Assembly: GCA_964490105.1 (NCBI GenBank)
Contig: CAZAZU010000002.1
Coordinates: 12,751-76,750, forward strand
DNA from: an uncultured Gammaproteobacteria bacterium
GTDB lineage: Bacteria; Patescibacteriota; Microgenomatia; Levybacterales; UBA12049
DNA length: 64,000 nucleotides
Direction of reading: 5' to 3'
This document shows, in pieces, positions 13,907-31,272 of this stretch. Every line of letters begins with the position of its first letter. Position 1 is the stretch's first letter. The position numbers and the translations under genes are program-made. Under the pieces are notes generated by a model. The model was not told the origin of the DNA. It ran no database searches and worked only from the letters and a program-made list of their open reading frames with translations.

Positions 13907-16261
13907 ATGCCTGATACAATTGTGTTTGTGAAATTTGTAGGCTACGCAACACGCGGAATTGAATTTTTATTTTACTCTCTTTTTCTACTCATCCCGCTAG
14001 TTTTCGCAGGTAACACTTCAGAGCTTTTTGAATTTTCTAAAATGTGGCTCACTTTCGGAATTGCAATTACCATTGGTTTTTTATGGTTTTCAAAAATGAT
14101 CCTTCTAAAAAAATTTATCTTCAAAAGAACTATTTTTGATATCCCGATATTCTTAATTCTTTTTTCTCACTTAGTTTCAACCTTAATTTCTCTAGATCCT
14201 CATATTTCACTCTGGGGATATTACTCCCGCTGGAACGGCGGACTACTATCAATGCTCACATATGCATTTCTGTTCTGGGCCTTTGTAAGTAATTTTAATC
14301 ACGACTCGACAGAAAACCCCACTACAAATCATCTGTCTAGGAAAAGTTTTTTTGATATTCGTCCAGATGCTTTAAGAGTAATCCAAAATTCATTTTTAGT
14401 AAGTCTGATATCTGGATTTATAGTCGTTCTCTGGGCAATTCCTTCACATTTTGGTTATGACCCTACATGCTATGTATTCAGAGGAACACTCGACACAACT
14501 TGCTGGACTGCAGATTTCCAGCCTACTGTCAGAATATTTGGACCACTCGGTCAGCCGGCTTGGCTCGCAGCATACTTAGGCATCTTAATCCCAATTGCCG
14601 GAGCTTTTGCATTGAAAGAACTTAGAAAAACAAAGGAAAAGCTAAACCCGAAATTTCTTGCTTACTCAGGACTATTTATACTATTTTATATAGCCCTTCT
14701 TTATTCAGGGTCCAGAGGAGGAATAATAGGTGTTTTCATTTCGCTTCTATCCATGACAATTTCTTATCTTTACTTTAACAGGCACGATCTAAGTTTCTTA
14801 AAAAATAAATTAATTCCAATTTTTATAGCTTCCATTATAATCGTAACGCCATTCGCAGGAATTGATTTGCCAAATGGAACTAAAGTTACATATGATGTTT
14901 TACTTAAGCAATTTAAAAAAGACGCACCGCCCCCACCCATAACACCCGGACAAACACCTACAACATCTGCAGCTGCAACCGAAGAGACTCCAAATCCTGC
15001 AATTCCACTAGGAGGATCTTCATCAGCTGAGATTCGATCAATTGTTTGGAAAGGCGGAATTGCAGCGTGGAAAGCAAATCCTATTTTCGGGACAGGAGTT
15101 GAAACTTATGCTTTTGCATACTACAAACATAGGCCTGAAGAACATAACAGAGTGTCTGAATGGAACTTCTTATATAACAAAGCTCATAACGAATACATCA
15201 ACTATCTAGTTACTACTGGAGCTTTCGGATTCCTTTCTTATGCTGCTTTCATTGGTCTTTTCTTTATCGCATCTGGACTTAGCTTATTAAATATAAAAGT
15301 AAGAACAATTCCATATTTAGGAAATTTTTCATCTAGCGTTAAGTGGGATCACAAGGATCCGATCGTACTCGCGCTTATCGCCTCTATTATTTCCATGCTA
15401 ATCGTAAACTTTTTCGGTTTTTCAGTCGTAATTACAAATATTTATTTATTCTTAATACCGGCATTTATTCTATTTCTTTTGAAACTAGTTCCAGATTTTA
15501 AAGAACCTCCTCTTCCTAAAATCCCATATGTCTCTTACTCTCAGTGGAGTGCAGTAATAGGACTTGGTGCACTAGCTACATTTTTAATTTTTATGCTTGT
15601 CAGATTCTGGGTGGCTGACACCAAATATGCATTAGGCTTTAACTATAATCAGGCTGGGGATTTTCAAACGGCGTATCCCTTACTGCAATCTGCGATAAAA
15701 ATGAGAAAAGAACCTGTTTTCTTAAATGAAATAGCTATAAATGACGCAAATCTTGCAACAAGTCTTGCGACACAAAACGGCAGTGAGTCAGCGCAAATTA
15801 TTCAGCAATTAGCTACAGAATCTCTAACAACTTCTGAAAAATTAATTAAAGACCATCCAAATAATGTAGTCTTCTGGAAAACTAGAGTTAGAGTTCTTTA
15901 TACTCTAGCCCGCCTTGACCCTTCATTTTATCCACAGGCTTTAGCAGCTATTCAGCAAACAGCTCTTCTTGCTCCAACTGATGCAAGTATTCTCTATAAC
16001 TTGGGAGTTTTGTATGGACAAAATGGAGATTCTAAAAAGGCTGTAGAAATTCTGGAGCAAACAGTCAAATATAGACCCCAATATTCTGAAGCCCATTTCG
16101 CGCTTGGTCTTTTCTATCATGACTTAGGTGTTGACCAAAATGGAGCAGTAAAAGATGAAACATATCGCCAAAAAGCGATTGCTGAAATGGATTATATACT
16201 AAAAAATCTTAACCCAAATGATTCTCAAGCTAAAGCCTACTACGACGAATGGCAGAAGTAG
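13907..16261 (+). CDS. O-antigen-ligase (Wzy_C)-like polytopic membrane protein fused to C-terminal TPR repeats
   Basis: Many TM helices. Wzy_C-type loop WKGGIAAWKANPIFGTGVETYAFAY..H.R..EWNFLYNKAHNEYINYLVTTG. C-terminal TPR-like repeats (ILYNLGVLYGQNGDSKKAVEILEQTVKYRPQYSEAHFALGLFY). Start chosen at the Met at 13907 to avoid overlap with mreB. Confidence 0.55.
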   Translation: MPDTIVFVKFVGYATRGIEFLFYSLFLLIPLVFAGNTSELFEFSKMWLTFGIAITIGFLWFSKMILLKKFIFKRTIFDIPIFLILFSHLVSTLISLDPHISLWGYYSRWNGGLLSMLTYAFLFWAFVSNFNHDSTENPTTNHLSRKSFFDIRPDALRVIQNSFLVSLISGFIVVLWAIPSHFGYDPTCYVFRGTLDTTCWTADFQPTVRIFGPLGQPAWLAAYLGILIPIAGAFALKELRKTKEKLNPKFLAYSGLFILFYIALLYSGSRGGIIGVFISLLSMTISYLYFNRHDLSFLKNKLIPIFIASIIIVTPFAGIDLPNGTKVTYDVLLKQFKKDAPPPPITPGQTPTTSAAATEETPNPAIPLGGSSSAEIRSIVWKGGIAAWKANPIFGTGVETYAFAYYKHRPEEHNRVSEWNFLYNKAHNEYINYLVTTGAFGFLSYAAFIGLFFIASGLSLLNIKVRTIPYLGNFSSSVKWDHKDPIVLALIASIISMLIVNFFGFSVVITNIYLFLIPAFILFLLKLVPDFKEPPLPKIPYVSYSQWSAVIGLGALATFLIFMLVRFWVADTKYALGFNYNQAGDFQTAYPLLQSAIKMRKEPVFLNEIAINDANLATSLATQNGSESAQIIQQLATESLTTSEKLIKDHPNNVVFWKTRVRVLYTLARLDPSFYPQALAAIQQTALLAPTDASILYNLGVLYGQNGDSKKAVEILEQTVKYRPQYSEAHFALGLFYHDLGVDQNGAVKDETYRQKAIAEMDYILKNLNPNDSQAKAYYDEWQK

Positions 16262-16314
16262 ATATAATCTAGCTTTGCATTATGCTATAATTTCCAGAAC
16301 CGGTTTTTCGAATT

Positions 16315-16869
16315 ATGGCACAAATCGTATCCGCACCACATCCAGTTTTAAGTAAAGTAGCTAGCGATTATGTCTTTGAAAAAAATGACAAATTTTTGCC
16401 GGCGATTTTAAAAGAGATGGAAAAAGCACTTCTCGAGGCTTCTGACCCGAAAGGAGTAGGACTTGCAGCTCCTCAGATCGGACGAGGAATTTCAATTTTT
16501 ATAACCAAACCATCTGATAATGCCCCTATCTCTGTTTTTATAAATCCTAAAATCATAAAATCAGAACCAATTCCAAAAGATAATCCAGAAGATGAAAAAA
16601 AAGCTAAAAAACTTGAAGGATGTCTTTCGCTTCCAAGCATTTGGGGTGTTGTTAAGAGATCTCCTAGCGTTACTCTTTCTTATTATGATCATTTAGGAAG
16701 AAAGAAAACTAAAAAATTTACAGGATTTATGTCAACTATCGTACAGCATGAGGTAGATCATTTAAATGGAATTCTTTTCCCAAAAAGAGTTTTAGAGCAA
16801 AACGGCGCTCTTTATAAATCCAGCAAAAATGAAAAGAATGAGGACGAATTCGAAGAGATTTCAGTATGA
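16315..16869 (+). CDS. def: peptide deformylase
   Basis: Motifs GVGLAAPQIG, EGCLS, QHEVDHLNG. Confidence 0.9.
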   Translation: MAQIVSAPHPVLSKVASDYVFEKNDKFLPAILKEMEKALLEASDPKGVGLAAPQIGRGISIFITKPSDNAPISVFINPKIIKSEPIPKDNPEDEKKAKKLEGCLSLPSIWGVVKRSPSVTLSYYDHLGRKKTKKFTGFMSTIVQHEVDHLNGILFPKRVLEQNGALYKSSKNEKNEDEFEEISV

Positions 16870-18895: not shown

Positions 18896-19384
18896 CTAAT
18901 TTCCGGTATATTTGAAAGACTTCGCAATCTGATCTAACTCGTCATAGAGATCTTCCGAGGTTGTAGAAAAATTATAGACTCTTGGTTTAATAAACACAAA
19001 ATAAGTCATCCTAAAATTTTCTTCTCCAGATTTATTCGACAGCGCCTGTTTTACTGATTCATATCCATCAATTTCTAAATTCTCCGATTTAATTACCATA
19101 GCCCTATTCTTCTCATGCAAATCAGACAAATAACTATCTAGATCATTAAAATTAGTCCCACTTCTACTTATCAAAATTTCGCCGTTATTTTCTTTAACAG
19201 TCACTGAAGCAAACTTATCCTCAAGCCTTGACTCGGGAGGAACCTCAAATGATATATTCATTGATTTTGAATCGTAAATTTTATAATCTCGAGGATTTAA
19301 ATAATTATTAAAGTAAACAATTGAAATAACAGAAGCAATAATTAAGACTATAACTAATTCATTTTTTTTCTTTAATAACTTCAT
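18896..19384 (-). CDS. hypothetical membrane-anchored protein
   Basis: 162 aa with an N-terminal TM (LVIVLIIASVISIVYF). No motif. Confidence 0.35.
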   Translation of the reverse strand: MKLLKKKNELVIVLIIASVISIVYFNNYLNPRDYKIYDSKSMNISFEVPPESRLEDKFASVTVKENNGEILISRSGTNFNDLDSYLSDLHEKNRAMVIKSENLEIDGYESVKQALSNKSGEENFRMTYFVFIKPRVYNFSTTSEDLYDELDQIAKSFKYTGN

Positions 19385-19385
19385 C

Positions 19386-21827
19386 TTAGTAACTATATTT
19401 TAGCGTACCGCTTTCAGATCTTAGTTTCAAGAGATACATTCCGCTCCTTTCTTCCCTTAAAATCTGCCTATTATTTTTATCGTAAGTATAAATCTTTGTT
19501 TTATTTGTTAATGCCGAATAAACAATTCCTATTAAATTTTTATCTTTCATGAAAAATATTTCCGTAAGACTGTTAAGTTTTTTAGTTTTCGAATCATAAA
19601 CTGGCGCGACAATTAAATTATTTTTTTCTGGGTAAATATGAGGGCCATTGTTATATCTGAATGATGTAATATTTATCCAGGAAAGCGGATTACTCGAATA
19701 ATTTTTATACTGAAAAGTAAGGGTATTCCCCGCTTTGTCGGAAACGGTAGCTATTTTCCCACCAACTGAATCAGATTTAGTAACTGATGCTGATTCGGAT
19801 CCGTCTTTTCCATAAAATTCTATGGCTTTAGAATTTAAGAAATATTCTATCTCCACTTCAGGCGAAGTTTTGTCTATATAAAACGAAATGATTTTAGGAT
19901 CCTCAACATTCTCATCATTATCTACCGAATAAAATTCTAATTTATGCTTACCGGATGCCGAGAACTCTATTGGAGAGACATACTTTTCCCAATCTCCATC
20001 TTCTCTTCTATATAAAATATAATTTACTCCTAATCCATTTGTATTATCACTAGCAACTAGACTTACTAATGCGTTAGACCTGTAAAATCCTTCATTTCCC
20101 ATTACCCCGAAAATAAACGCTGAGGTTGTGGCAGGAGCTATATCTTTTCTTTCTGCTACCAATGCAAATTGAGTGAGATGATTTGCTGCGGTTGTTGCTT
20201 TTTTATTTTCTAAATCTACTGCGGTATCTTCTTTTACCCAATCAATTCCATCGGATGTTGAATAAATAGATAGAGTTCCTACGACAATTTTAGAAAGATC
20301 TAGATCAGAAAAATCCATGGTTAGTGAAAATGGCTTGTTAAAATTTGTAACCTCATTTCCCAAAGCATCTTCCGTGGTTACTTCGACTGTGGGACCGATT
20401 GATCTGAGTAAATCGGAAATCCTTTGTATGGGTGTGGAAATTAATTTAAGAATTAAACTTTTATCAGTAGCCCCTTCTGGAAAATTCACTGAATTTCTCC
20501 CGCTTACAAAAAAACCTCCATTAGAATCTAAAGTGGTATCAAGCCCATCAATTTTTTCTTTCCATAGATAATAGCTTTTATTTCCAGTTCTATTTTGACC
20601 ATTATAAAAGAATGAATAATTTTCCCATGGGTCAGGTGATTTAGACTGCCAACCAAATGGGTCCGTTAATCCATCAGGAATATTATCTTCAAAATTTCCA
20701 TCATTATTCTTATCCTGGATGACCATTAAGTGAATATGTGCGCCATCTTCTCCTTTAGGTCGCACATTTCCAGTAGCACCTACTTTCCCAATTGGATATC
20801 CCGCACTTACTTGAACTTCCAGATTTGGAATATTTGTAATTAATCCATCTTCTAGAAGATGGTAGTATCTTGTTTGATAACCATTACCATGATCTATGTG
20901 AATTGCATTTCCACACGGACCACAGGTATTAATAAATTTAGCAAATCCTCCTGCAGCGGCAATAACCTCATCCCCGTAATCTGCTTGAGCAAGACTCCCA
21001 TAATCATATCCGTCGTGAGAGGAGTAGGCCTCATCAGTTTTGGCATTTTTATAATTAATTATCTGACCGGGCTCGATCATTCCCACGCTTAACAATGGGT
21101 ACTCGTGGTCAAAAAATGAATTTATTGATAGTGCTGCATCTGTAAACGATAAACCTTTTCCTTTATAATCCCACGGTAATTCTAGGAATGGTTCTGGGGC
21201 TGGCAAAGGTGCGGGACTGGGGGTTACGGAGGGAGAAGGAGTGGGCGTCGGACTTGGATTAATATATTCATAATTAAATGCCACCTCTAGGTTATCAATA
21301 TTCGCTGACCATGCTGATGGTCCCGCTCTATTTATTCTAAAAATAAAATTATTTGATCTGATATTCGATGGGTTCAAACAGCTATTAAAATCTACTCCGC
21401 TTGTTGAGGTAATATTATACTCAGCAATATTTACTCCAACCAAGTTTGTCATTGTCCATTTATCTCCTGGCGTCTGACAATTCAATCCATAAGTTGTCCC
21501 CGCAGAAACACCGACAAACAATCCTATATCAGATTTTCCAGTCACACGAATCCTAACCCCAGTTATTCTCACGTCATTTGGTAATCCAAAATCTCCAAAA
21601 TTCCTAAAATATAAATTAGCGAATGAAAGTCCGGTGGCCCTATCACACGTTAAGCCATCTGTAGTTGAGCAATTTGATAAATTTGTATATGCGGGACTTC
21701 CATCAGTAGTTATAGTGGTAGCACTTCTATAAGGGGTTGTTTCTGCAGATGCTGGTCTAAGAAAACAAAAAAAGAATAACCCAAAGAACAGGCAGAAGAA
21801 AAAGGCCCTGATTGCACTTCTACTCAC
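19386..21827 (-). CDS. secreted M23 (LytM-type) peptidoglycan endopeptidase with large N- and C-terminal accessory domains
   Basis: Signal peptide, PT linker (NPSPTPTPSPSVTPSPAPLPAPEP), M23 motifs HDGYDYG (HxxxD) and GAHIHLMV (HxH), then a ~400-aa C-terminal region. Confidence 0.7.
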   Translation of the reverse strand: MSRSAIRAFFFCLFFGLFFFCFLRPASAETTPYRSATTITTDGSPAYTNLSNCSTTDGLTCDRATGLSFANLYFRNFGDFGLPNDVRITGVRIRVTGKSDIGLFVGVSAGTTYGLNCQTPGDKWTMTNLVGVNIAEYNITSTSGVDFNSCLNPSNIRSNNFIFRINRAGPSAWSANIDNLEVAFNYEYINPSPTPTPSPSVTPSPAPLPAPEPFLELPWDYKGKGLSFTDAALSINSFFDHEYPLLSVGMIEPGQIINYKNAKTDEAYSSHDGYDYGSLAQADYGDEVIAAAGGFAKFINTCGPCGNAIHIDHGNGYQTRYYHLLEDGLITNIPNLEVQVSAGYPIGKVGATGNVRPKGEDGAHIHLMVIQDKNNDGNFEDNIPDGLTDPFGWQSKSPDPWENYSFFYNGQNRTGNKSYYLWKEKIDGLDTTLDSNGGFFVSGRNSVNFPEGATDKSLILKLISTPIQRISDLLRSIGPTVEVTTEDALGNEVTNFNKPFSLTMDFSDLDLSKIVVGTLSIYSTSDGIDWVKEDTAVDLENKKATTAANHLTQFALVAERKDIAPATTSAFIFGVMGNEGFYRSNALVSLVASDNTNGLGVNYILYRREDGDWEKYVSPIEFSASGKHKLEFYSVDNDENVEDPKIISFYIDKTSPEVEIEYFLNSKAIEFYGKDGSESASVTKSDSVGGKIATVSDKAGNTLTFQYKNYSSNPLSWINITSFRYNNGPHIYPEKNNLIVAPVYDSKTKKLNSLTEIFFMKDKNLIGIVYSALTNKTKIYTYDKNNRQILREERSGMYLLKLRSESGTLKYSY

Positions 21828-21918
21828 AGAATTAGCCTCTTAACCTGAGCTTACTCCCGAAAAATCGAAAAAGCAACAGTGAATCCTTCTAGCTTCATGT
21901 TTTAGTTCTATAGTTAAA

Positions 21919-21955
21919 CTACAGCTTTCCAAGGAGAGTCCTTGGAAAGCTGTAG
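21919..21955. repeat. perfect 17-bp-stem hairpin (REP/IS200-end-like), left flank of the Y1 transposase
   Basis: ctacagctttccaaggagagtccttggaaagctgtag. The arms are exact reverse complements. Confidence 0.7.
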
Positions 21956-21976
21956 GAGACATGTTATTATTTACTT

Positions 21977-22666
21977 ATGCCAGCTAAAAATGCACTCAAG
22001 AATTATCAAGAGAATAGCTTTTATCATATTTATAACCGCGGTGTTGAAAAAAGAATTATTTTTGAAAATTCTCAGGACTACTTAGTTTTCCTCTCCTATC
22101 TTAAGGAATATCTAACTCCTAAAAATGAAAAAGAATTATGTAATCGACTTTCAGATCCTAAAATCGGATCTATCGAAAGAGATAAGATTATAAAAATTTT
22201 AAATCTTAATAATTTTTCAGATGAGATTAATCTTCTAGCATATTGTCTTATGCCAAATCATTTTCACTTTTTACTAAAACAGAAAAAACAAAATTCTATC
22301 GATAGATTCATGAGATCAATATGCACAAGATACACAATGTATTTCAATAAGAAATACAAAAGAGTTGGCTCACTATATCAGGGTGTATACAAGGCAGTGA
22401 TAATTAAAAAAGAAAATCAATTTCTCCATTTAACTCGATACATCCATCAACAAGCTTTAGCTTTCGATAATCAGATTTTGGATGGCTACAATGGTCAACC
22501 TTGTTCTTATTGGGAATACGTTGAAAAAAGAAGAATCGAATGGATTAAACCCCAGGAAATCTTATCTTATTTTTCTGAAAATAATCCAAAATTATCTTAT
22601 GCAAACTTTGTCAACGAAAAAAATAATTCTGAGATAATGCAAGATTTAATTCTTGAGGAGTATTAA
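21977..22666 (+). mobile_element. Y1/HUH tyrosine transposase (IS200/IS605 TnpA- or RAYT-like)
   Basis: HuH motif LMPNHFHFLL and downstream Tyr in RYIHQQA. 229 aa. Flanked on both sides by the same hairpin sequence. Confidence 0.75.
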
Positions 22667-22699
22667 AATCCTTTTGTTCAAATTTTATTACTCACCTCC

Positions 22700-22728
22700 A
22701 GTTTTCCAAGGAGAGTCCTTAGAAAGCT
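22700..22728. repeat. imperfect copy of the same hairpin, right flank of the Y1 transposase
   Basis: agttttccaaggagagtccttagaaagct shares the core ccaaggagagtcctt with the 21919 hairpin. Two arm mismatches. Confidence 0.6.
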
Positions 22729-22894
22729 AAATTGCCCCGGTTTATTTTTTTACTATAAGTAAAATTTTACTTACTTGACTTATCCACATTTTAGGTTTAA
22801 AACTATATTATAGGGTCGAAAGATTTTTGATATAGTTTTTGTAACCAAACTATATCTCTTCATTTAGCTATACCGGGCTAAGATATTTAGGTTC

Positions 22895-22949
22895 TCTTCA
22901 CTTACTATGGGTTTGACATCCCCCTTAAAATGTTGTAATATGACCGCGT
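22895..22949 (+). promoter_or_regulatory. sigma70-like promoter (TTGACA-17-TAATAT) for the 22950 operon
   Basis: ttgacatcccccttaaaatgttgtaatatga immediately upstream of the ATG at 22950. Confidence 0.4.
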
Positions 22950-23684
22950 ATGGCTGTACAGCAAGAAACTTTAATGAAACACACACCAGCACATCGTCAA
23001 ACACAAGAAGGCGGTTTACCTAGCCTGCCAAACAGACCTAGAACCCCCCACCTTCCACACTCAAGAGCAATCGCTGTTGGATTAGCTTTAGCAATTGCAG
23101 GAACGGCCGTAGGGGGAATTTTTAGAAAAACTGGTGATACTGTAATAAATGAAATGCCTACAGTCGTAACCCTAGATAATCAACACGAATTCATATTTGA
23201 TGGAAGATTACTTGTAAATCTAAGTATGTCACCTGAAGGCGAAGTAAGAAAAGAACCTACAACTAGAACACAGATTTTAAAAGCTGAATCTATCACTATT
23301 CCTGAGGGAGAAGAATTATATGCAACTGATGATATCGCTGCTCCAGAAGGTGAACAACACAGAGTCACACTATCACCTGTTGATTTATCTGAATCCTATT
23401 TCGTACCAGTAGCTGGAAGAACCTATGGTCAAGACACTAAAGATCACTATGCAGATATGACTGTAAATAGAGATGTAGCTTTAGGATCTGAGCCAATACT
23501 AAAAGATCCATTTGGATCAGTAAATATAAATGGAATAGAAGTCGGAATCTTTTTTAGAGTAAGCAATGCTGATGGAAGCGCTAAACTGGGTCCTAATGAA
23601 AAGCCTGTTTATGTAAAACCAAGTCAAGTAGATGTAGCAATTCCAGAGGCCCAAAATCAAGTACCACAGCCTGTAAATGCTTAA
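22950..23684 (+). CDS. hypothetical membrane-anchored protein (GC-rich)
   Basis: 244 aa. Pro/Arg-rich N-terminus, then a TM helix (AIAVGLALAIAGTAVGGIF). Confidence 0.4.
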   Translation: MAVQQETLMKHTPAHRQTQEGGLPSLPNRPRTPHLPHSRAIAVGLALAIAGTAVGGIFRKTGDTVINEMPTVVTLDNQHEFIFDGRLLVNLSMSPEGEVRKEPTTRTQILKAESITIPEGEELYATDDIAAPEGEQHRVTLSPVDLSESYFVPVAGRTYGQDTKDHYADMTVNRDVALGSEPILKDPFGSVNINGIEVGIFFRVSNADGSAKLGPNEKPVYVKPSQVDVAIPEAQNQVPQPVNA

Positions 23685-23740
23685 TTTACATGCTATAGGC
23701 TTGACAATTGGCCGAAAAGGAGTATAATCGCAAACTGAAT

Positions 23741-24826
23741 ATGACAGAAACACTAAATACATCAATCGGCGCACATCCTAACACTCGTTCAGAGTCGAAT
23801 CAAGCATATTGGAAATCTATCACTAGAAGAGTCGCTACAGGAAAAACAATTGAAATCTCTACTGTGGCACAAACTCCTAAAGTAACTGATACATTTACTC
23901 CCCTTTTCGATCAAGGATCTTTCATGTACAGAGCGGTAGCTCTTGCAGGAAGATTTGCAAAACCGGCATTAGCAACAGGCGGAGCCGCAGCAGGAATAGC
24001 AGGAGCAGCACTTGTAGTTGACTTGGATGGAAAATACGTATCTGCACAAGAGCCATCTACTGCTCCATCAGCTGCGCCATCAATTGAGCCTAAACCATCA
24101 GTAACTCCTGATCCAGAAACAGGACTTTTACCATGCCCTACTCCGACACCTGAACCAGGAGAAACACCAATTCCTGATAGAACTATCCCACCTGACATCG
24201 GAGTTGTTTCAGAAGGAGAGGTTTTATTCGCACAAGGAGCCAATTCAAACGGAGAAACTGTAATAGTTACTCTAGCTCAAGAAGCACCATCAGCTGCTCC
24301 ATCAGCACCAGCAAGCCCAGCTGCATCAGAAGGCCCAAAAACAGCAGTAAATCCAAATTGTGATCCAGTATTAACAGAGGCATATATTAAAGCTGGAAGA
24401 CCTGCAGACAAAGAACCAGTTAAATTTAGTTTTATGGATGAAGCAATAGAAGCCCCAATCAGTATGGGTGAACTAAAAGGAATAATTAAAGCTTTTTATA
24501 CAAAACACCCAGAAGCACTTCAGTATGTAGACGAATACGACACAAAGCTTACTACAAAAACACGAAATAGAATGCTTAAGCAATGCGAAAAAGGATATCC
24601 TGATGATCCGAAAGAACTAATTCAACAAAGCAGGGTATCGAGCTGTGCTGGTCTAATAAACTTTTTATACTATATTGCTGTAGAAAATAAATCCCAAGGA
24701 ATGATGGACTTAGCTCAATCAGTTTACTGGTACGCAGTAGCTAATATTAAAGCCTATGATCCCGCGCGTGCTCTTGAGGAGTTTTTAGGTGGAATTGAAA
24801 TAAGAAATCAAACTATTCAAGGTTAA
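23741..24826 (+). CDS. hypothetical protein with A/P/S-rich linker and Cys-containing C-terminal domain (GC-rich)
   Basis: Start moved to MTETLNT (23741) because the upstream ATG lies inside a TTGACA-16-TATAAT promoter (23709-23736). Linker SAAPSIEPKPSVTPDPETG...PTPTPEPGETP. Confidence 0.4.
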   Translation: MTETLNTSIGAHPNTRSESNQAYWKSITRRVATGKTIEISTVAQTPKVTDTFTPLFDQGSFMYRAVALAGRFAKPALATGGAAAGIAGAALVVDLDGKYVSAQEPSTAPSAAPSIEPKPSVTPDPETGLLPCPTPTPEPGETPIPDRTIPPDIGVVSEGEVLFAQGANSNGETVIVTLAQEAPSAAPSAPASPAASEGPKTAVNPNCDPVLTEAYIKAGRPADKEPVKFSFMDEAIEAPISMGELKGIIKAFYTKHPEALQYVDEYDTKLTTKTRNRMLKQCEKGYPDDPKELIQQSRVSSCAGLINFLYYIAVENKSQGMMDLAQSVYWYAVANIKAYDPARALEEFLGGIEIRNQTIQG

Positions 24827-24880
24827 TCCTCTTCTCTTCGTATTGACACAGATATCCAGGCTATACTAATCTAATACTAT

Positions 24881-25621
24881 ATGAGCTTTAACTTGCTCAA
24901 TTCTGTTCGTGTAAAATTAATTGCCCTGGTACTAATGATCTTCATTGCTGTAACTATCTTTTTTGGTATTTTCTATTTGAGAAATAGAGAAGAAATACCA
25001 GATGAGCTTACTCTCCTAGACAGAGAGGGAGGAAAAATCTCCTATCTATATCCAAATTACATTAGCCAAGTTAGGGTTGAGGAAAAATTTAAAATCCTGC
25101 ACGATAAAAAACTCACAGAACAGGAAAGATATTCTGCGCTTGATAATCTAGCTTTCTTTTTCGGCTCTGCATATAGTGATACTAATGACGCGAAAATAAG
25201 AAAATATCTAGTCAACTTAGGTAAATATGGAGAAAAAGAATTCCCTGCTCTATTTAAAAAGGGTCCTTTTAACCCTGTGTGTCAAGATCCAAGCTGTGCA
25301 CCTCCGACTCCTGAGGAAATTAAATCAATAATTACTCAAATTAAATCGTCTGATGCTCCAAAAGAAGATATAGAAAGAATAACTAAGGCTCTATCAAATG
25401 CCAGCATGGTGGAAGATGATGCCGAGGATTTTAAATTTTACGCTTATAATCAGGCTTATACTGATATCAAGTCCGTAGCTGATACATCATCCTCTTCAGC
25501 CCTACTTAAAACACACGAAGATCTAGGTATATTTCTCTCAAAAAAATACCCGGAATATTGGGAACTCTACAAAGAAAACGTAAGTGAAGGTATAAAAGAA
25601 AGCTTTCTTGAAAATTTATGA
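24881..25621 (+). CDS. hypothetical membrane-anchored protein
   Basis: 246 aa with an N-terminal TM (LIALVLMIFIAVTIFFGIFYL). 4-nt overlap with the downstream giant gene. Confidence 0.4.
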   Translation: MSFNLLNSVRVKLIALVLMIFIAVTIFFGIFYLRNREEIPDELTLLDREGGKISYLYPNYISQVRVEEKFKILHDKKLTEQERYSALDNLAFFFGSAYSDTNDAKIRKYLVNLGKYGEKEFPALFKKGPFNPVCQDPSCAPPTPEEIKSIITQIKSSDAPKEDIERITKALSNASMVEDDAEDFKFYAYNQAYTDIKSVADTSSSSALLKTHEDLGIFLSKKYPEYWELYKENVSEGIKESFLENL

Positions 25622-28600
25622 AAAAAATATTACTAGCTCTTATAATATTCCTAGCACTATTTGAAATAGCTTCAAAAGTTAACGAAGTGCGTGCACATGG
25701 ACCAAGCAAGACTCTTTATTTTAGAAGATGTAACTATAATCCCGGAGTAAGATGGCAAGTTAGATATCAAGTCATATTTAGTGATAATAGTAAATCAGGA
25801 TATATATATGGAACTACGGGACCCGAATCAGCTCATAACGATTACTACGCGGAAGAAGTATGTAACGGATTCGCAAATAGAACTGGCGCATCTGAACCTC
25901 TCGTTAATACCGGCAGTAATGCAGCTGATCCGCCCCATCCAGGAGGATTTATAAGCAGTAGACTAGGACCGAGACAAGACAGTACAAAAATAGTATGGTC
26001 TACAGCTTGTGTAGATCCCGTAATCGATGCTATTACGGTCTACGAAACATTAGACGGAGGACATTTCATATGGGAATTTGTGGAAGACGTCTCATTTAGA
26101 CGTAATATAAATGGGTGCAATGTGCCAAACAGTGGATGCAGCGGTTTTAACGCAGGAAACTTAATCTCCGCAGTAGAGGGAAAAGGAACAATTAATTTTA
26201 GTGAGACAAGCAAATGCAGTAACAACCCCCCACCTCCAAAATACAAAATCAGCGGACATGTTTTTATAGATAAAAACGAAGATGGAGATAAGGACCCAGG
26301 AGAACCATACTACAACTCAGGAGATAGATCTATAGAAAAATGGGGAGACTATCATGAATATGAGGATGGTGGGTCAAACAACAATGGCTTCTATGAATTC
26401 TTTAATTTACCGGGAAGAGATGATTACGGAATTAAATTTAATGTTCCAAGTGGATATAGATGCACTACAGGAAGCGGATGCAGTCATGGCTGTCAAAGTC
26501 AGGGATGCGGAAATGGAATAACACTAGGACCGAGTAAAACTTATAATTTTGGTATCGCACTTGATCGCGGAGCAATTTCGGGAGTTGTTTATATAGATGA
26601 GTGGAACGGAAATAATCCGCCAAATGGAAAAATTGACGGGAATGATACCCGCCGACGAGATGAACTGGTAAGAATGGATCCCAATGGAGCAAATGAAACA
26701 CGAAGAACTGATAGGGATGGTAGGTATAGATTTGGAGATTTGAATCCGGGATCTGACCATAACATAAGACTTGACGGAATTGAGCCCTGCAGGTTAAATG
26801 TCATGGGCGATAATCCTAAAATAAATGTTAACGCTCCTTCAGGCGGAAATAACGATGTACATTTCAGACTCACCCGAAGGTATTTCGAGATAGTTGGAAA
26901 TATATATAGATATGATGCTGCCGAATGCACACCCACCATTAACACTAACTGTCAGGCATATGGAAGAAGCGTAAAGCTTACCGCTGTCGGAACAGGAAGA
27001 AATGATGATTCAAAAGCAGGAGATGCTCCTGACTATAAAATAACACGAATTCAGGATCAAAACGGGGCTTATTCAGTCAGACTTACAGGTCTTAGAGATG
27101 GAGAAAGTGTAGTTGGAGGAAATGAAAAAGACGTTATTGTTAACTGTGCAAATGCAAGACAGGATTTTTACATTCGTCCAGCTGGGGCTACTGAGTTCGA
27201 TATTTCAGGAACTGTTTATGTAGACTCAAACAACGATGGCGCTCTTCAAAAAGCAACGGATGAGATATATGATGGAGGCGGAACTGTTCAGATCAGAACT
27301 GGAAATAATTCAGCCTCGACTGGAAGAACAGGCCCAGTTAGGAATAATGGAACTTATACCGTAATAGACAATCCTCAGAACACAAATTATACTGTAAGAC
27401 TTCAACAAGGAACTCTAGCCTCAGGCTACACTGTACTAAACAATGATAGACGCATTAGCATGGGAACTGCAGACGTAGCTCAGGTTAACTTTTTAGTTGA
27501 TGCTCCTGCAAATACCTATTCTATCAGGGGTGGAGTTTATATAGATTCTGATAACCCTGAAGGAAAAAAGACTGGATCAGAGCCTTATGTTTCAGCAACC
27601 GGCAGTGAAAGAATAAGAATACAAGGACTCCCTGCAGGAGCAAATTGTCCTCAAAACAGATCTTCATTTGTTAGAGATATTAATAATTTTACAGGAGAAT
27701 TTATCGCAAGCGGAATTCAACCCGGATGCTATAGAGTCGAATTCAACGGACCTTCCGGCAGAGGTGCTAATTGGAGAGTAACTTACCCTTCAGGCATCTC
27801 CCCTTTTACCATTGGACCTATCATAGTAGGACCGAATTGTAATGATGACGCTACAGATCAAGATGGTATCGCTCTTTGCGCTACTGGCGCAGGAGGCGGA
27901 GTTAATGGAAATATCACAAATGTAGATTTTGGAATAAAACAGCAAGATGATAATCCCTGGTACCAATCAGTCGGTGGTGATGTACGCATTGACGAAGATA
28001 ATTACAGGAATATAATTCCGGATGGTAATTCTCCGGTCTGCACAAATTCTACATACCCTTATGTATCTTCTAACTCAATTAGCGGAAATCTAACATCTGG
28101 AGTAGTATTTACAGGAAGTAATCCTAACTTCTCAGATACCGGAAATGATAGATCAAAAGCTTCAAATCGAGGCTGGCTTCTAACAGGAAATGAATTTAGC
28201 CCGTCAAGACCCGGAACTATAAGAACCTCTTATACTTATATGAATAATATTATCGAGAAAGGAAGAATTACTGTTAACCCAATGTTTGGTAATAGCGCTA
28301 CTAAAACATGTATCAATAACTCTGGACCTGACTGTACTTTCAGAGCAAATCTCTTAAATGGAGTCTATAAATCAACAACTTCTGTAACTATCAGAGGAAG
28401 CGGAAATCCCGAAACATATACTTTTCCTGATGGAAGAGATTATGTTTTCTTAATTGAAGATGACCTAAGAATAGAATCTAATATTCAGGTAAATCCAGGC
28501 TCTACCGTAACATTCATAGTCAGCGGAGATATCATCATTAGTCCCGACGTAACTGAACTTGATGGAATTTATTCTGCCGATGGCAGCTTTATTACTCAGG

Positions 28601-29682
28601 GTATCGCAACCGGGGCAAACGACCAACCTCTAAGAATTGAGGGAAATGTGATCGCAAATGCCGGTTTAAATGCTGGGGAAAAGTTTGATCAAAGAAGAGA
28701 CTTGGGAGATGCTCAAAACGTAGATTGTCCAGCTGTAACCATAGTATCCCGCCCCGACTTTATACTAAATGGACCTGAGCTTATCCGATATACTAACTAT
28801 GTCATTCAGGAAATTGCACCTGGAGCAGATAGGAGCAGCCAAGGAGCTGGCGGATTTCTAATAGCTGATACATATACTCCTCCATTTACACCTGTCCCAA
28901 ATACACCTACTCCAAGACCCCCAACTCCTGAGCCAGAGGAGCCAACTAATACTCCCCGCCCTAGCCCAAGACCGTCTCAAGAACCGGAGGAAGATAATTT
29001 TCCTTTTTTTTGTCAATATGGGGCAGTTAATAAAAACGGCTGGGTTCCTGAATCAGACAGACATTCATGGGACTACACTTACGATGGCGGTAAAAGATGT
29101 GATATTTATGGAAGCGGATGCGCCATGACTTCACTTGCAATGATTATGAAATATTTTGGTGACAACATGAACCCGGAAAGCACATCGAGACAGGCTACAA
29201 ACAATAAATACCCTATTAACTTGGGATGTCAGTCTCCTGGAACCTTAACCTCTCAATTAACTAATACTGTAGTACCATGGCTAAGAAACAGGAATTATTC
29301 AGTCCCTGGGGGTGACCGTCCAAATCAAGTTCAATTTACATTCGATAGTCAAGGAGATTACACAGGCAAAATTAACCTTAAAGTATTAAAAGTATATATA
29401 GATCATGGATATTTACTGTTGGGGGGAGCAAAAATTACTATGGCGACAAAACAAGGATTGTCAGAACCTGCTGGGCATGCATTTGTTATAACAGATATAA
29501 ATGTTGAGAACGAGACGATGACAGCTTATGATCCTACTTTCTGTCAAAAAGATTATCCAAATCTTCAGGGAGGCAAAAGAACAATTAGAAATGTGAACAA
29601 AATTGGAGGAAATCCAATAGGCTGTTCTAATGGAGATTGTGGATGGGTGCAAATGTTTGCTATAAAGAAGAAACCTAACTAA
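25618..29682 (+). CDS. giant secreted surface protein with SdrD/CnaB-type Ca-binding repeats and C-terminal C39-like (papain-fold) peptidase domain
   Basis: Signal peptide. At least four repeats of the form G.V(F/Y)(I/V)D.N.(D/N)G..D.GE (HVFIDKNEDGDKDPGE, GVVYIDEWNGNNPPNG, GTVYVDSNNDGALQKA, GGVYIDSDNPEGKKTG). Pro-rich linker TPPFTPVPNTPTPRPPTPEPEEPTNTPRPSPRPSQEPEE. C-terminal GSGCAMTSLAMIMKYFG (C39-type Cys motif) and a later GHAFVITD (His). Confidence 0.65.
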   Translation: MKKILLALIIFLALFEIASKVNEVRAHGPSKTLYFRRCNYNPGVRWQVRYQVIFSDNSKSGYIYGTTGPESAHNDYYAEEVCNGFANRTGASEPLVNTGSNAADPPHPGGFISSRLGPRQDSTKIVWSTACVDPVIDAITVYETLDGGHFIWEFVEDVSFRRNINGCNVPNSGCSGFNAGNLISAVEGKGTINFSETSKCSNNPPPPKYKISGHVFIDKNEDGDKDPGEPYYNSGDRSIEKWGDYHEYEDGGSNNNGFYEFFNLPGRDDYGIKFNVPSGYRCTTGSGCSHGCQSQGCGNGITLGPSKTYNFGIALDRGAISGVVYIDEWNGNNPPNGKIDGNDTRRRDELVRMDPNGANETRRTDRDGRYRFGDLNPGSDHNIRLDGIEPCRLNVMGDNPKINVNAPSGGNNDVHFRLTRRYFEIVGNIYRYDAAECTPTINTNCQAYGRSVKLTAVGTGRNDDSKAGDAPDYKITRIQDQNGAYSVRLTGLRDGESVVGGNEKDVIVNCANARQDFYIRPAGATEFDISGTVYVDSNNDGALQKATDEIYDGGGTVQIRTGNNSASTGRTGPVRNNGTYTVIDNPQNTNYTVRLQQGTLASGYTVLNNDRRISMGTADVAQVNFLVDAPANTYSIRGGVYIDSDNPEGKKTGSEPYVSATGSERIRIQGLPAGANCPQNRSSFVRDINNFTGEFIASGIQPGCYRVEFNGPSGRGANWRVTYPSGISPFTIGPIIVGPNCNDDATDQDGIALCATGAGGGVNGNITNVDFGIKQQDDNPWYQSVGGDVRIDEDNYRNIIPDGNSPVCTNSTYPYVSSNSISGNLTSGVVFTGSNPNFSDTGNDRSKASNRGWLLTGNEFSPSRPGTIRTSYTYMNNIIEKGRITVNPMFGNSATKTCINNSGPDCTFRANLLNGVYKSTTSVTIRGSGNPETYTFPDGRDYVFLIEDDLRIESNIQVNPGSTVTFIVSGDIIISPDVTELDGIYSADGSFITQGIATGANDQPLRIEGNVIANAGLNAGEKFDQRRDLGDAQNVDCPAVTIVSRPDFILNGPELIRYTNYVIQEIAPGADRSSQGAGGFLIADTYTPPFTPVPNTPTPRPPTPEPEEPTNTPRPSPRPSQEPEEDNFPFFCQYGAVNKNGWVPESDRHSWDYTYDGGKRCDIYGSGCAMTSLAMIMKYFGDNMNPESTSRQATNNKYPINLGCQSPGTLTSQLTNTVVPWLRNRNYSVPGGDRPNQVQFTFDSQGDYTGKINLKVLKVYIDHGYLLLGGAKITMATKQGLSEPAGHAFVITDINVENETMTAYDPTFCQKDYPNLQGGKRTIRNVNKIGGNPIGCSNGDCGWVQMFAIKKKPN

Positions 29683-29688
29683 AAATAA

Positions 29689-30111
29689 ATGAATAAACCT
29701 TATTATATTATTGGAACTATTATTACTTTGATTCTAATTATGATCTTTATAGGGTCATGGGCATTCTTAAACTACAGGGAAAGAGTTAATAATGACTCCG
29801 GCTTTACAACACAAAACCAACCCCTGTCAAAAGAGCCTTCCGTAAGCACTGGATCGGACCTTGGAGACTTTTCTCAAAAAGAATTAAATGAAAATAGAGG
29901 CTACAAAGTATCTGAGCTAGCTTCTAAGCTTCCTCAAAACGGGCAAAATTTCTCCCTATCGTATGATTTTGATACTGATGAATTCACTCTCTACATTAAT
30001 CCTGATGCACAAGAACAGGGCAACTCTGAACTTACAGCATTTTTAAAACAAAACCAAATTGACAGCATTTCTTGGCTATATAATCTAAAAAGGGTTAACC
30101 AAAGACCTTAA
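29689..30111 (+). CDS. hypothetical small membrane-anchored protein
   Basis: 140 aa with an N-terminal TM (IIGTIITLILIMIFIGSWAF). Last gene of the same-strand cluster. Confidence 0.35.
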   Translation: MNKPYYIIGTIITLILIMIFIGSWAFLNYRERVNNDSGFTTQNQPLSKEPSVSTGSDLGDFSQKELNENRGYKVSELASKLPQNGQNFSLSYDFDTDEFTLYINPDAQEQGNSELTAFLKQNQIDSISWLYNLKRVNQRP

Positions 30112-30140
30112 GTTAATTTAAACCTCCCTAGTTGACTTTA

Positions 30141-30170
30141 TCCATCACTCAATTTATACTTTTAATTGCT
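30141..30170 (+). promoter_or_regulatory. sigma70-like promoter TTGACT-17-TATACT upstream of a ~240-nt untranslated GC-richer stretch and tRNA-Thr
   Basis: ttgactttatccatcactcaatttatact. Confidence 0.4.
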
Positions 30171-30419
30171 CTTTGATACACGCAGGGGATTATGATTTTT
30201 CCTCTATGTTAATTTCCTTGAGGTATCCCGATTTAATCGGGAGACAAGGCGGAGTTTCGGTTAACTAAGGTTAGTCGGACAGCCTCCCTATTTCACTCAA
30301 GGGGAAAACGATAATCCAACTTCGGTATCAAAGGCAGTATTTATTAATTAAACCAGTCTATTTTTAATAAAGGCAATGTCTTGCCTCAAATCTCCTCTTT
30401 CTGGTAAAATTACCATTAC

Positions 30420-30491
30420 GCCGTCTTAGCTCAGTGGTAGAGCAGCTGTTTTGTAAACAGCAGGTCGTGGGTTCAAATCCGACAGACGGCT
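30420..30491 (+). tRNA. tRNA-Thr (anticodon TGT)
   Basis: Cloverleaf folds by hand: acceptor gccgtct/agacggc, D-arm gctc-agtggta-gagc, anticodon stem gctgt/acagc with loop tttgtaa, T-loop ttcaaat. One G-G mismatch in the T-stem. CCA not encoded. Confidence 0.75.
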
Positions 30492-30781
30492 CAGCGTCCA
30501 ATCAAGATTAAATCCGTTCCATCTTTTGCTTTGCAAAAGATTTAACACTATAATCTGATTCTCCTTTCTCAAAATTGCTTTGCAATTTTGAAATCAATTA
30601 GCCCGCTGGCTAATTGAAGAGGAGCGAACGGCGAAAAATCGAAGTCCGCCAGATGGCGGACGAAGATCCGAGACGGAATCGCGACGAGCTGAGTTGGCGG
30701 AGCAGTCAATCGCACCTGACTGTAGATCAGGTGCCCGAAAGGGCTACAGGAGTGCAAATCTCTTACTCAGCACAACACCAA

Positions 30782-30853
30782 GCCGATTTGGCTCAGTGGT
30801 AGAGCAAGTCATTGGTAATGACTAGATCGTGGGTTCGATTCCCACAATCGGCT
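30782..30853 (+). tRNA. tRNA-Thr (anticodon GGT)
   Basis: Acceptor gccgatt/aatcggc, D-arm gctc-agtggta-gagc, anticodon stem agtca/tgact with loop ttggtaa, T-arm gtggg-ttcgatt-cccac. All stems perfect. Confidence 0.85.
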
Positions 30854-30866
30854 CACCTACTCTTTG

Positions 30867-30895
30867 ATTTTAAGCATAATTTTAGTTATAATTGT
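30867..30895 (+). promoter_or_regulatory. sigma70-like promoter TTGATT-17-TATAAT upstream of rpmG
   Basis: ttgattttaagcataattttagttataat, ~10 nt before the rpmG ATG. Confidence 0.4.
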
Positions 30896-30903
30896 AACCT
30901 CAT

Positions 30904-31077
30904 ATGGCAAAAGGTGAACACAGACAGAATTTTGGATTAAAATGCAGCGTTTGCAAGAACGTTAATTACATCACGCAAAGAAATAAAATTAACACTGAAA
31001 GCAAACTTTTACTTAAGAAGTTCTGTAAGAAATGCAGAAAAGTTACAGATCATAAAGAAATCGAAAAACTTAAGTAA
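30904..31077 (+). CDS. rpmG: 50S ribosomal protein L33
   Basis: 57-aa ORF MAKGEHRQNFGLKCSVCKNVNYITQRNKINTESKLLLKKFCKKCRKVTDHKEIEKLK with two C..C pairs and the L33 pattern. Below the 60-aa cut-off of the supplied ORF track. Canonical position before tRNA-Trp and secE. Confidence 0.8.
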   Translation: MAKGEHRQNFGLKCSVCKNVNYITQRNKINTESKLLLKKFCKKCRKVTDHKEIEKLK

Positions 31078-31151
31078 TTCCCCTCTTTTCATTTGATTAA
31101 AGCCCAGTCCCAAAGTATAATAGTGCCAGGGTTTAACCCTGAGCGAAACGA

Positions 31152-31223
31152 AGGGATGTGGTGAAACGGCTATCACAGCAGTCTCCAAAACTGCTTTTCT
31201 CAGTTCGAATCTGAGCATCCCTG
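31152..31223 (+). tRNA. tRNA-Trp (anticodon CCA)
   Basis: Acceptor agggatg/catccct, anticodon stem gcagt/actgc with loop ctccaaa, T-arm tcag-ttcgaat-ctga. Canonical rpmG-tRNATrp-secE neighbourhood. Confidence 0.8.
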
Positions 31224-31272
31224 CACTATTTGATATATTGTAATTTCCAGAGATCGATAGTATTTTAAATTC

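Follow-up and report, generated by a model that had tools for sequence, protein, structure and literature searches.

A Sec-secreted stalk protein with exchangeable C-terminal heads and a co-varying small membrane protein at a core locus of Candidatus Levybacteria

The principle that polymorphic C-terminal domains come with cognate downstream genes is known from the polymorphic toxin systems, which comprise CdiA-CT/CdiI, Rhs, LXG and MafB (Zhang & Aravind 2012; Jamet & Nassif 2015). Here we describe a locus of comparable organization in a Levybacteria genome of the candidate phyla radiation (CPR)/Patescibacteria, found in a 64,000-nucleotide (nt) stretch of contig CAZAZU010000002.1 (assembly GCA_964490105.1); the whole of this stretch is called the window. 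The locus consists of five plus-strand open reading frames (ORFs), g1-g5, at positions 22950-30111. Three small proteins, g1, g2 and g3, precede a large secreted protein, g4, which is built as a stalk with a C-terminal head, and a fourth small protein, g5, follows it. No description of this cluster was found in the searchable literature; a Saccharibacterium has been noted to carry what may be an Rhs-type toxin, together with an immunity gene (PMC6031116).

As in the polymorphic toxins, the N-terminal bulk of a large secreted or surface-exposed protein is conserved and gives way at a sharp junction (here ...DTYTPPF) to C-terminal domains that are unrelated among close homologues, a small downstream gene changes with the C-terminal domain, and the distribution is mosaic and incongruent with the rest of the protein. 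Unlike in those systems, the scaffold is not of the type V, VI or VII secretion or Rhs kind but a CPR-specific, Sec-secreted stalk of immunoglobulin-like (Ig-like) repeats with a cap that may be beta-solenoid-like; the heads, where they are not non-enzymatic binding modules, are peptidases whose site of action would be extracytoplasmic; a membrane anchor holds the putative immunity protein; there are no orphan modules; and toxicity and immunity are here only putative. The staphopain-staphostatin operons of Staphylococcus aureus (scpAB, sspBC; 1pxv, 1y4h) likewise encode a papain-fold peptidase followed by a small specific inhibitor, and staphopain structures, some of them in complex with the inhibitor, rank among the closest fold matches to the g4 head. 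However, the task of staphostatins, which are cytoplasmic beta-barrels, is to guard against protease that folds prematurely, whereas g5 is unrelated to them in sequence and anchored in the membrane at its N terminus, and staphopains are free proenzymes, 10-14% identical in sequence to the head, rather than the heads of a 1,350-residue stalk. The Tae/Tai pairs belonging to type VI secretion systems (T6SSs; BtaeB-BtaiB, 9jdd) also combine a papain-like envelope hydrolase effector with an adjacently encoded extracytoplasmic immunity protein, but there is no T6SS in this monoderm-type CPR genome window, and delivery would need surface contact. With the phage endolysins and modular cell-wall hydrolases of family PF13529, the head shares a score above the family cut-off, distant members fused to SLT and Amidase_3, and viral fold neighbours that are lysins or tail-associated hydrolases; unlike them, it has no wall-binding domain (SH3, LysM, PG_binding), and its substrate is only presumed. 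Finally, tandem Ig-like B-type repeats of about 105-110 amino acids (aa) form a stalk that projects a functional domain in the Sdr family of MSCRAMMs (microbial surface components recognizing adhesive matrix molecules; SdrD B-repeats) as in g4, although g4 lacks an LPXTG signal and an SD-repeat region and has its functional domain at the C terminus, not at the N terminus. What is new is the scaffold, a CPR cap-domain stalk with Sec export and, probably, docking through three dedicated membrane proteins, together with peptidase heads and membrane-tethered partners.

Nine loci were informative for the comparison of heads and g5 genes: the window, L002, L004, L005, L008, L009, L010, L011 and L072. 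The g4 protein of the window is 66-71% identical to the homologues P0002-P0005 over residues 1 to about 1110 and then shows no similarity to them, whereas P0007, from L005, is 32% identical to it over the stalk and 60% over the last 235 residues. Segment by segment, the junction is 72-86% identical to those of L002, L004 and L008 and the head about 21%; the head is 57% identical to that of L005. The same boundaries appear in the DNA: blastn alignments with L002, L004, L008, L009 and L010 break off at 28829-28934 and start again at 30151-30155, and inside the cassette so bracketed (Table 1) the only alignments are to L005, L011 and L072. Four head states were found on stalks that are 62-71% identical, namely a linker with a C39-like peptidase (window, L011, L005 and L072), a Cys-rich linker with an HExxH domain (L002, L004 and L010), a Pro-rich linker with a PF17829-like beta-sandwich resembling a carbohydrate-binding module (CBM; L008), and no head at all (L009). 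The HExxH head, which has no Pfam or PDB sequence match, bears a zincin-like HEsGH...ESMAEL motif, and HExxH...E is kept in all three alleles. The linkers reshuffle independently of the heads, the Pro-rich type occurring with C39 or CBM-like heads and the Cys-rich type with HExxH or, in L005, C39.

The gene that follows g4 changes with the head. A g5 of one type, g5a (140-151 aa), lies 1-6 nt after every C39-like head (four loci), and homologues of the window's g5a were found solely directly downstream of such heads, in L011, L005 and L072; they are 41-67% identical overall, with a well-conserved C-terminal domain of about 75 aa, which in the window's protein follows an N-terminal transmembrane segment and a low-complexity tether. 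Every HExxH head (L002, L004, L010) is followed by the gene of an unrelated small membrane protein, g5b (204-206 aa). There is no g5 in L008, with the CBM-like head, or in headless L009, and no room for one, because in both the conserved non-coding RNA region described below lies within about 30 nt of the g4 stop; in the window, only about 40 nt separate g5 from the promoter of that RNA. The C39-g5a pair has been kept in L005 and L072 with heads just 57-60% identical to that of the window, the rest of the L005 g4 being 22-37% identical. Across these loci, a small membrane protein accompanies peptidase heads only and co-varies with them, and head and g5 have been exchanged together.

Table 1. 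Features of the five-gene locus and its flanks, in nucleotide positions of the window or, where marked aa, in residues of g4.
Feature	Position	Strand	Details
162-aa protein	18896-19384	-	Divergent neighbour pair with M23 gene
M23 peptidase	19386-21827	-	Secreted, 813 aa, OmpL47-type beta-barrel domain (Pfam)
IS200-like unit, ~0.85 kb	21879-22755	+	Y1 (HUH) transposase gene 21977-22666, Pfam Y1_Tnp 6e-12
P1 promoter-like site	22905-22941	+	TTGACA-17-TAATAT, 10/12 (22913-22941); upstream motif CTATGGGTTTGACA; g1 ATG 8 nt past -10
g1	22950-23684	+	244 aa, single-pass membrane protein
P2 promoter-like site	23693-23728	+	Perfect TTGACA-16-TATAAT, 12/12 (23701-23728); upstream motif CTATAGGCTTGACA; g2 ATG 12 nt past -10
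g2	23741-24826	+	361 aa from the ATG conserved among relatives; 372 aa from TTG 23708 (mechanical ORF start)
g3	24881-25621	+	246 aa; stop overlaps g4 start
g4	25618-29682	+	1354 aa
g4 conserved stalk	25618-28824	+	aa 1-1069
g4 signal peptide	aa 1-~26		Sec-type
g4 N-terminal domain	aa 27-205
g4 Ig-like repeats	aa 211-~745		Five SdrD_B/CarboxypepD_reg-like repeats of ~105 aa; starts 211, 320, 425, 529, 636
g4 cap domain	aa ~750-1069		Ends RPDFILNGPE...QEIAP
g4 junction and linker	28822-28989	+	Conserved GADRSSQGAGGFLIADTYTPPF (...DTYTPPF), then Pro-rich linker aa 1091-1124
Exchangeable cassette, ~1.2 kb	28935-30150	+	Linker, head and g5, bracketed by conserved sequence
g4 head, C39-like cysteine peptidase (predicted)	28990-29682	+	aa 1125-1354
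g5 (g5a type)	29689-30111	+	140 aa
Promoter-like site and candidate structured non-coding RNA	30132-30340	+	TTGACT-17-TATACT at 30132-30160; RNA ~30165-30340, ~175 nt
tRNA-Thr(tgt), tRNA-Tyr, tRNA-Thr(ggt), rpmG, tRNA-Trp	30420-31224	+	rpmG 30904-31077; ARAGORN, Rfam for tRNAs

The initial annotation had described g4 as an SdrD/CnaB-repeat protein with a C39-like domain. Its SdrD part was confirmed by a match to SdrD_B (PF17210) at residues 211-285 (37.9 bits, 2.2e-9; gathering cut-off 29.7 bits), although this is the single repeat above the cut-off and the four others were recognised solely by a shared motif, and the C39-like part by a match to Peptidase_C39_2 (below); the CnaB part fell away, as g4 gave no Cna_B match at E <= 0.1. 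Searching whole g4 against PDB sequences returned nothing significant. No LPXTG-like motif was found in g1-g5, and no ORF resembling a sortase (TLxTC) anywhere in the window. The cap defines an unnamed family, delimited here and called CPR 'PDFILNAP', of about 320 aa with invariant W, Q, D and R...RPDFILNxP...E.AP, for which a scan with the cap-domain alignment found 58 metagenome loci (L014-L071). In about 50 of the 58, the protein stops exactly 23 aa past PDFILNAP (...E[EV]AP-COOH), with neither a hydrophobic anchor nor a known sorting signal at this fixed C terminus, so the cap is the normal C terminus of a widespread family of large CPR surface proteins; unlike these, the window's g4 runs on past it. 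The other 58 cap-family loci contain neither the small proteins g1-g3, g5a and g5b nor either of the peptidase heads. The AlphaFold2 (AF2) model of the cap is weak (predicted local distance difference test, pLDDT, 51), with a confident run of short strands over about 125 residues, and in fold it resembles DUF3494-type ice-binding beta-solenoids and the ComZ pilin only marginally (E 0.06-0.5), so that the term beta-solenoid-like is only a hint. A general tie of the family to type IV pilins was rejected, as prepilin genes occur nearby just in the most divergent loci, L067 and L068. A more distant member, L016, has a PA14-like extension past the cap. In L005, a second, shorter cap-family paralogue (14514-16706; 730 aa, headless) stands directly after g5a; the cap family can thus be tandemly duplicated.

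The head of the window's g4 matches PF13529 Peptidase_C39_2 with 25.6 bits in the whole protein (2.1e-5) and 29.7 bits as an isolated C-terminal piece (1.1e-6), against a cut-off of 24. By contrast, it stays below the cut-off of PF03412, the Peptidase C39 of bacteriocin double-glycine leaders (12.5 bits against 22), and neither the cluster nor its immediate surroundings contain an ABC transporter. Gln1133, Cys1168, His1287 and Asp1305 are candidates for the catalytic residues: every aligned homologue has the His and the Asp, and every one that spans the positions of the Cys and the Gln has these as well. In an AF2 model built on a four-sequence alignment, the Cys lies near the start of a helix (1163-1179) and the His and Asp on adjacent strands (1285-1295 and 1300-1305). 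A Foldseek search of the PDB with this model returned clan-CA enzymes (E 3e-4 to 1e-2): P210 CD lyase (as annotated), Alr0975, staphopains A, B and C including their staphostatin complexes, the pseudomurein endoisopeptidase PeiR, the Bacillus anthracis C39-like protein 3erv, and AvrRpt2. Among these, staphopain, Alr0975, PeiR, 3erv and AvrRpt2 scored E 3e-4 to 2e-3 with TM-scores of 0.36-0.46. The T6SS pair BtaeB-BtaiB was a weak match at rank 21. Among viral models, the matches were a phage 'peptidase', a phi29-type morphogenesis hydrolase, tape-measure C termini and an endolysin. A papain-like fold of the head can be proposed with moderate confidence from the model. In an exhaustive profile search of 1.84 billion representative proteins, only 115 relatives of the head were found, ten of them at E <= 1e-30, so the subfamily is rare. 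The domain sits at the extreme C terminus in nearly all 115 relatives (220-1336 aa long); an architecture scan of ten relatives showed SLT and Amidase_3 joined to the domain in one and a GDSL hydrolase in another, and the relative P0015 is a stand-alone secreted protein of 259 aa. For phages with Gram-positive hosts, PF13529 is on record as a catalytic domain of endolysins (PMC8223927). Taken together, these findings make it likely that the head is an active extracytoplasmic cysteine peptidase. Because PF13529 occurs in phage lysins and is fused to SLT and Amidase_3, cell-wall peptides would be its likeliest target, and such a substrate is plausible by analogy.

A hydropathy scan placed one N-proximal hydrophobic segment in each small protein (residues 40-58 in g1, 75-95 in g2, 13-31 in g3 and 7-25 in g5), and the flanking charges favour an N-in/C-out orientation for g1-g3. 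The anchored hypothetical proteins of the initial annotation are thereby retained, less surely for g2, whose Ala/Gly-rich segment is weak and only marginal. That none of them has a known domain also held: Pfam, NCBIfam, PHROGs, PADLOC and PDB sequences gave no family for g1, g2, g3 or g5, and since PADLOC and PHROGs gave no matches, the module belongs to no known defence system and does not come from a phage. In g1, the N-terminal part of about 60 aa (cytoplasmic and transmembrane) is conserved, and the ectodomain (about nt 23130-23684) is unique to this genome; it is 17-21% identical to those of relatives, including the ectodomain shared by L002, L004, L008 and L009, and blastn gave no DNA alignment to relatives across 23107-23666. 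It forms a second hyper-variable surface segment of the locus. In g2, the cytoplasmic N terminus and the hydrophobic segment are followed by a Pro/Ala/Ser-rich linker (residues ~100-205) and a conserved, Cys-containing C-domain (206-361), and the g3 ectodomain has an invariant CQDxxCA motif. The start/stop overlap of g3 and g4 (ATGA) is kept in L002, L004, L008, L009 and L010, with an 8-nt overlap in L005, and suggests that the two genes are translationally coupled in all seven loci with a visible junction. Between L009 (8235-10620) and the window (24350-26250), the g2 C-domain, g3 and the g4 N-domain are all just 22-26% identical, while the g4 repeats and cap are still 66-83% identical; a divergent g2C-g3-g4N allele appears to have been swapped into L009 as a single block, which is compatible with co-adapted partners and also with simple contiguity. 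A scan of GTDB genomes with g3 found two loci only, so the cluster is confined to a narrow clade.

The co-directional arrangement of the five genes, with short gaps or overlaps, was correctly described in the initial annotation, as were the ORF coordinates, the 4-nt overlap of g3 and g4 and the promoter-like elements before the first two genes; g4 and g5 are 6 nt apart. Both promoter-like sites, matching at 10 of 12 positions before g1 and at all 12 before g2, carry an upstream CTATrGGyTTGACA motif and are conserved in relatives, P1 being invariant over six aligned loci and P2 being kept even in divergent L005. The short distance from -10 element to ATG suggests that the g1 and g2 transcripts may be leaderless or near-leaderless. 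No convincing plus-strand terminator was found between g2 and g5. The earlier statement that the first genes are GC-rich did not survive: relative to the 55 ORFs of the window (mean GC 0.372, sd 0.038; the whole window also has a GC of 0.372), g1 (0.395, z +0.6) and g2 (0.411, z +1.0) differ little from the mean, and g3 lies below it. GC at third codon positions (GC3) is low in g1 (0.18) and g2 (0.20), as in the ribosomal-protein genes of the window; the small GC excess of the two genes therefore stems from Pro, Ala and Gly codons, and on GC3 the idea that they are GC-rich, foreign DNA was rejected. Elsewhere in the window, the ORF at 57148-58239 (+) has a GC of 0.508 (z +3.6) with ordinary GC3 and encodes a low-complexity protein of 363 aa rich in Pro, Ala, Thr and Glu.

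Taken together, the comparisons present the locus as a mosaic of conserved scaffolds and at least four replaceable segments, a pattern that would be expected for surface proteins in conflict or host interaction under diversifying selection. We propose, with about an even chance of being right, that g4 and g5 are a polymorphic surface effector and its cognate inhibitor or immunity protein, docked by g1-g3. The adhesin or effector with membrane accessory proteins envisaged in the initial annotation agrees with this in so far as g4 is a Sec-secreted stalk with a predicted enzymatic head and g1-g3 and g5 have single membrane segments, the one in g2 being the weak point. On our proposal, g1-g3 would be expressed from the two strong, probably leaderless promoters and, oriented N-in/C-out, would keep g4, which lacks an anchor of its own, at the cell surface by way of its N-terminal domain; the joint divergence of the g2 C-domain, g3 and the g4 N-domain in L009 is a hint of such docking. 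The C39-like head would cleave an extracellular substrate on a neighbouring or host cell, most likely cell-wall peptides, and g5, tethered to the producer's membrane, might, by analogy with known inhibitors, bind and neutralise the head as a specific inhibitor or immunity protein. Recombination between the conserved flanks would repeatedly swap heads, linkers, the g1 ectodomain and the g2C-g3-g4N block.

Several observations weigh against this proposal. No dedicated secretion system is present, the only export signal being the Sec-type signal peptide on g4, and the genes around the locus serve cell-envelope housekeeping (M23, M50, Wzy_C), which fits self-directed wall remodelling equally well. 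The AF2 model of the head is of medium quality (predicted TM-score, pTM, 0.75; pLDDT 64.5), the TM-scores of its Foldseek matches are low (about 0.30-0.50), and no relative of the head subfamily from phages or among known lysins turned up in sequence searches of 50,697 phage records and IMG/VR. The window contains no further head-like or g5-like ORFs, paralogues or orphan cassettes. By flanking charge, the topology of g5 is ambiguous in the window and in P0013 and clearly N-in just in L005 and L072. The sample behind the pairing is small, and its nine loci are phylogenetically non-independent; since head and g5 lie in one recombination tract, the co-variation could be plain linkage. Lastly, non-enzymatic heads, CBM-like in L008 and PA14-like in L016, show that toxins are not the only occupants of this position. 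Going further, we suggest only tentatively, as a doubtful extension, that the locus encodes a hitherto undescribed kind of polymorphic effector of Levybacteria, in which a membrane-docked, Sec-secreted stalk shows interchangeable cysteine or metallopeptidase warheads, each with a membrane-tethered immunity protein, to a host's or competitor's wall or surface in a contact-dependent manner independent of type IV to type VII secretion.

The effector and inhibitor reading was weighed against four alternatives. First, the head could be an autolysin for the cell's own growth, division or pilus/appendage passage, with g5 as a membrane-tethered regulator and no other cell as target, an arrangement that can be likened to IseA for LytE/LytF or to hydrolase-activator pairs. 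Besides the envelope-related neighbours, among which are an M23 peptidase with OmpL47-type domains and, in L005, MreB/MreC, the fixation of the module in the core chromosome would suit such a role, as would the strong conserved promoters and the low GC3 by which g1 and g2 resemble highly expressed genes of the window. We nevertheless consider it unlikely: a housekeeping enzyme would hardly be replaced by an HExxH domain, a CBM or nothing in relatives whose stalks are 70-83% identical, the other hyper-variable surface segments of the locus are more typical of conflict or host-interaction proteins, and the naturally headless L009 lineage hints that loss of the head has no growth phenotype. Second, the co-variation could reflect linkage only, g5 being an unrelated protein in the recombination tract and the head acting alone as a peptidase or binding module. 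Head and g5 are indeed contiguous and bracketed by the same conserved flanks, only nine loci are informative, and g5 has no recognisable family; yet in L005 and L072 the C39 head and g5a are still paired, 1-6 nt apart, despite 57-60% head identity, the C-terminal domain of g5a is conserved along with the head, and g5 is missing exactly in the two loci that have no peptidase head, so that we rate this explanation as improbable. Third, g4 could be a pure adhesin whose heads are target-binding modules, with a catalytically dead C39-like domain and g1-g3 and g5 as structural anchors. The carbohydrate-binding types of head in L008 (PF17829-like) and L016 (PA14-like) and the resemblance of the stalk to MSCRAMM B-repeats point that way, but there is only a slim chance of this, given that the Gln, Cys, His and Asp of a papain-type active site are conserved in all homologues covering them and that HExxH...E is kept in all three alleles of the other head.

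The fourth alternative concerns the setting of the locus. Homologue searches and exact-sequence matches assign the window to Candidatus Levybacteria. The same gene order was found in six related Candidatus Levybacteria contigs (L002/L003, L004, L005, L007, L008 and L009), in which the left flank reads Wzy_C/TPR, def, fmt, rpmB, M50 peptidase, the 162-aa gene and M23 peptidase where present, and one small variable gene; g1-g4 are followed by the conserved non-coding region, tRNA-Thr-Tyr-Thr, rpmG and tRNA-Trp, and farther right by genes for an acyltransferase, PAP2 and an NTP-transferase, then secE, nusG and rplK. These flanks recur in the window, whose DNA can be aligned with that of the relatives on both sides (blastn), the tRNA/rpmG region being 87.6% identical to L002. 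The tRNAs and rpmG are conserved core genes rather than an island attachment site. The M23 gene and its 162-aa partner are conserved divergent neighbours of the cluster, inverted in L008 and absent from L005. One of the six contigs, L007 (CAYXTY010000036.1; 7.3 kb), comes from a metagenome-assembled genome labelled 'uncultured Gammaproteobacteria' and has the Levybacteria order M50, M23, TrpR-like, g1-g3; its g2 and g3 match the window and L002 proteins with E-values of 1e-98 to 1e-172, and the contig is probably mis-binned. The non-coding region between g5 and tRNA-Thr, which is present in L002, L004, L005, L008, L009, L010 and L072, contains a candidate structured RNA with a long closing stem, an invariant 13-nt bulge and an internal hairpin (minimum free energy -63 kcal/mol, fold z-score -5.8). 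RNAalifold predicted 55 pairs, six of them with compensatory changes, which lie in the internal hairpin; no Rfam family was matched, even at E <= 10.

On the other side of the cluster, direct repeats of 54 nt (21898-21951 and 22675-22728) enclose the Y1 gene, and each contains a perfect 17-nt palindrome. The same hairpin pair flanks the Y1 gene of L009; in the four loci where a TrpR-like gene takes this place, the hairpins are missing. The Y1 protein is 93% identical between the window and L009, as against about 61% for the adjacent M23 proteins, and its own hairpin ends together with this difference mark the Y1 gene as a separate compact unit. In blastn alignments, the Y1 segment of the window stands in place of L004 6795-7268; between conserved flanks, one small gene thus replaces the other, TrpR-like in four relatives. 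The IS200-like unit has evidently moved recently and by this evidence has nothing to do with the origin of g1-g5. The notion that the whole block is a horizontally acquired island encoding an adhesin, which the initial annotation drew from its 'classic island position', can be dismissed as very improbable: the Y1 transposase gene (upstream) and four tRNAs (downstream) do border it as was claimed, g4 has adhesin-type Ig-like repeats and parts of the locus do exchange between lineages, but the block lies at the same site in the six related contigs with or without the Y1 element, that element is self-contained, no direct repeats flank the five genes, GC (z <= 1) and GC3 are not foreign-like, and the tRNAs belong to a conserved RNA-tRNA-rpmG region, so that the synteny comparison proposed in that annotation, once run, placed the block in the same core position with ordinary composition and refuted an island. 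As far as sequence comparison tells, the five genes are a lineage-specific surface module of a small Candidatus Levybacteria clade, fixed in the core chromosome, and exchange is limited to the ~1.2-kb cassette inside it and a few further segments.

Little is known of how CPR/Patescibacteria attach to or exploit other cells, and annotation is lacking for most of their large surface proteins. The locus offers a concrete handle on them, with a stalk family that can be recognised by its RPDFILNAP...EAP cap and a defined head-swap junction, and its two natural enzyme/partner pairs, C39-like with g5a and HExxH with g5b, can be expressed and assayed without culturing the organism. Should the stalk prove to display warheads with tethered immunity proteins, as we suggested tentatively, it would be a tool of contact-dependent antagonism or host attack in CPR episymbionts, built on a cap-domain family that is widespread in CPR. 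If the pairs are effector and immunity proteins, they would carry the polymorphic-toxin concept over to a new scaffold and a phylum of episymbionts; otherwise, the locus is still a clear case of modular surface-protein diversification at a fixed core locus.

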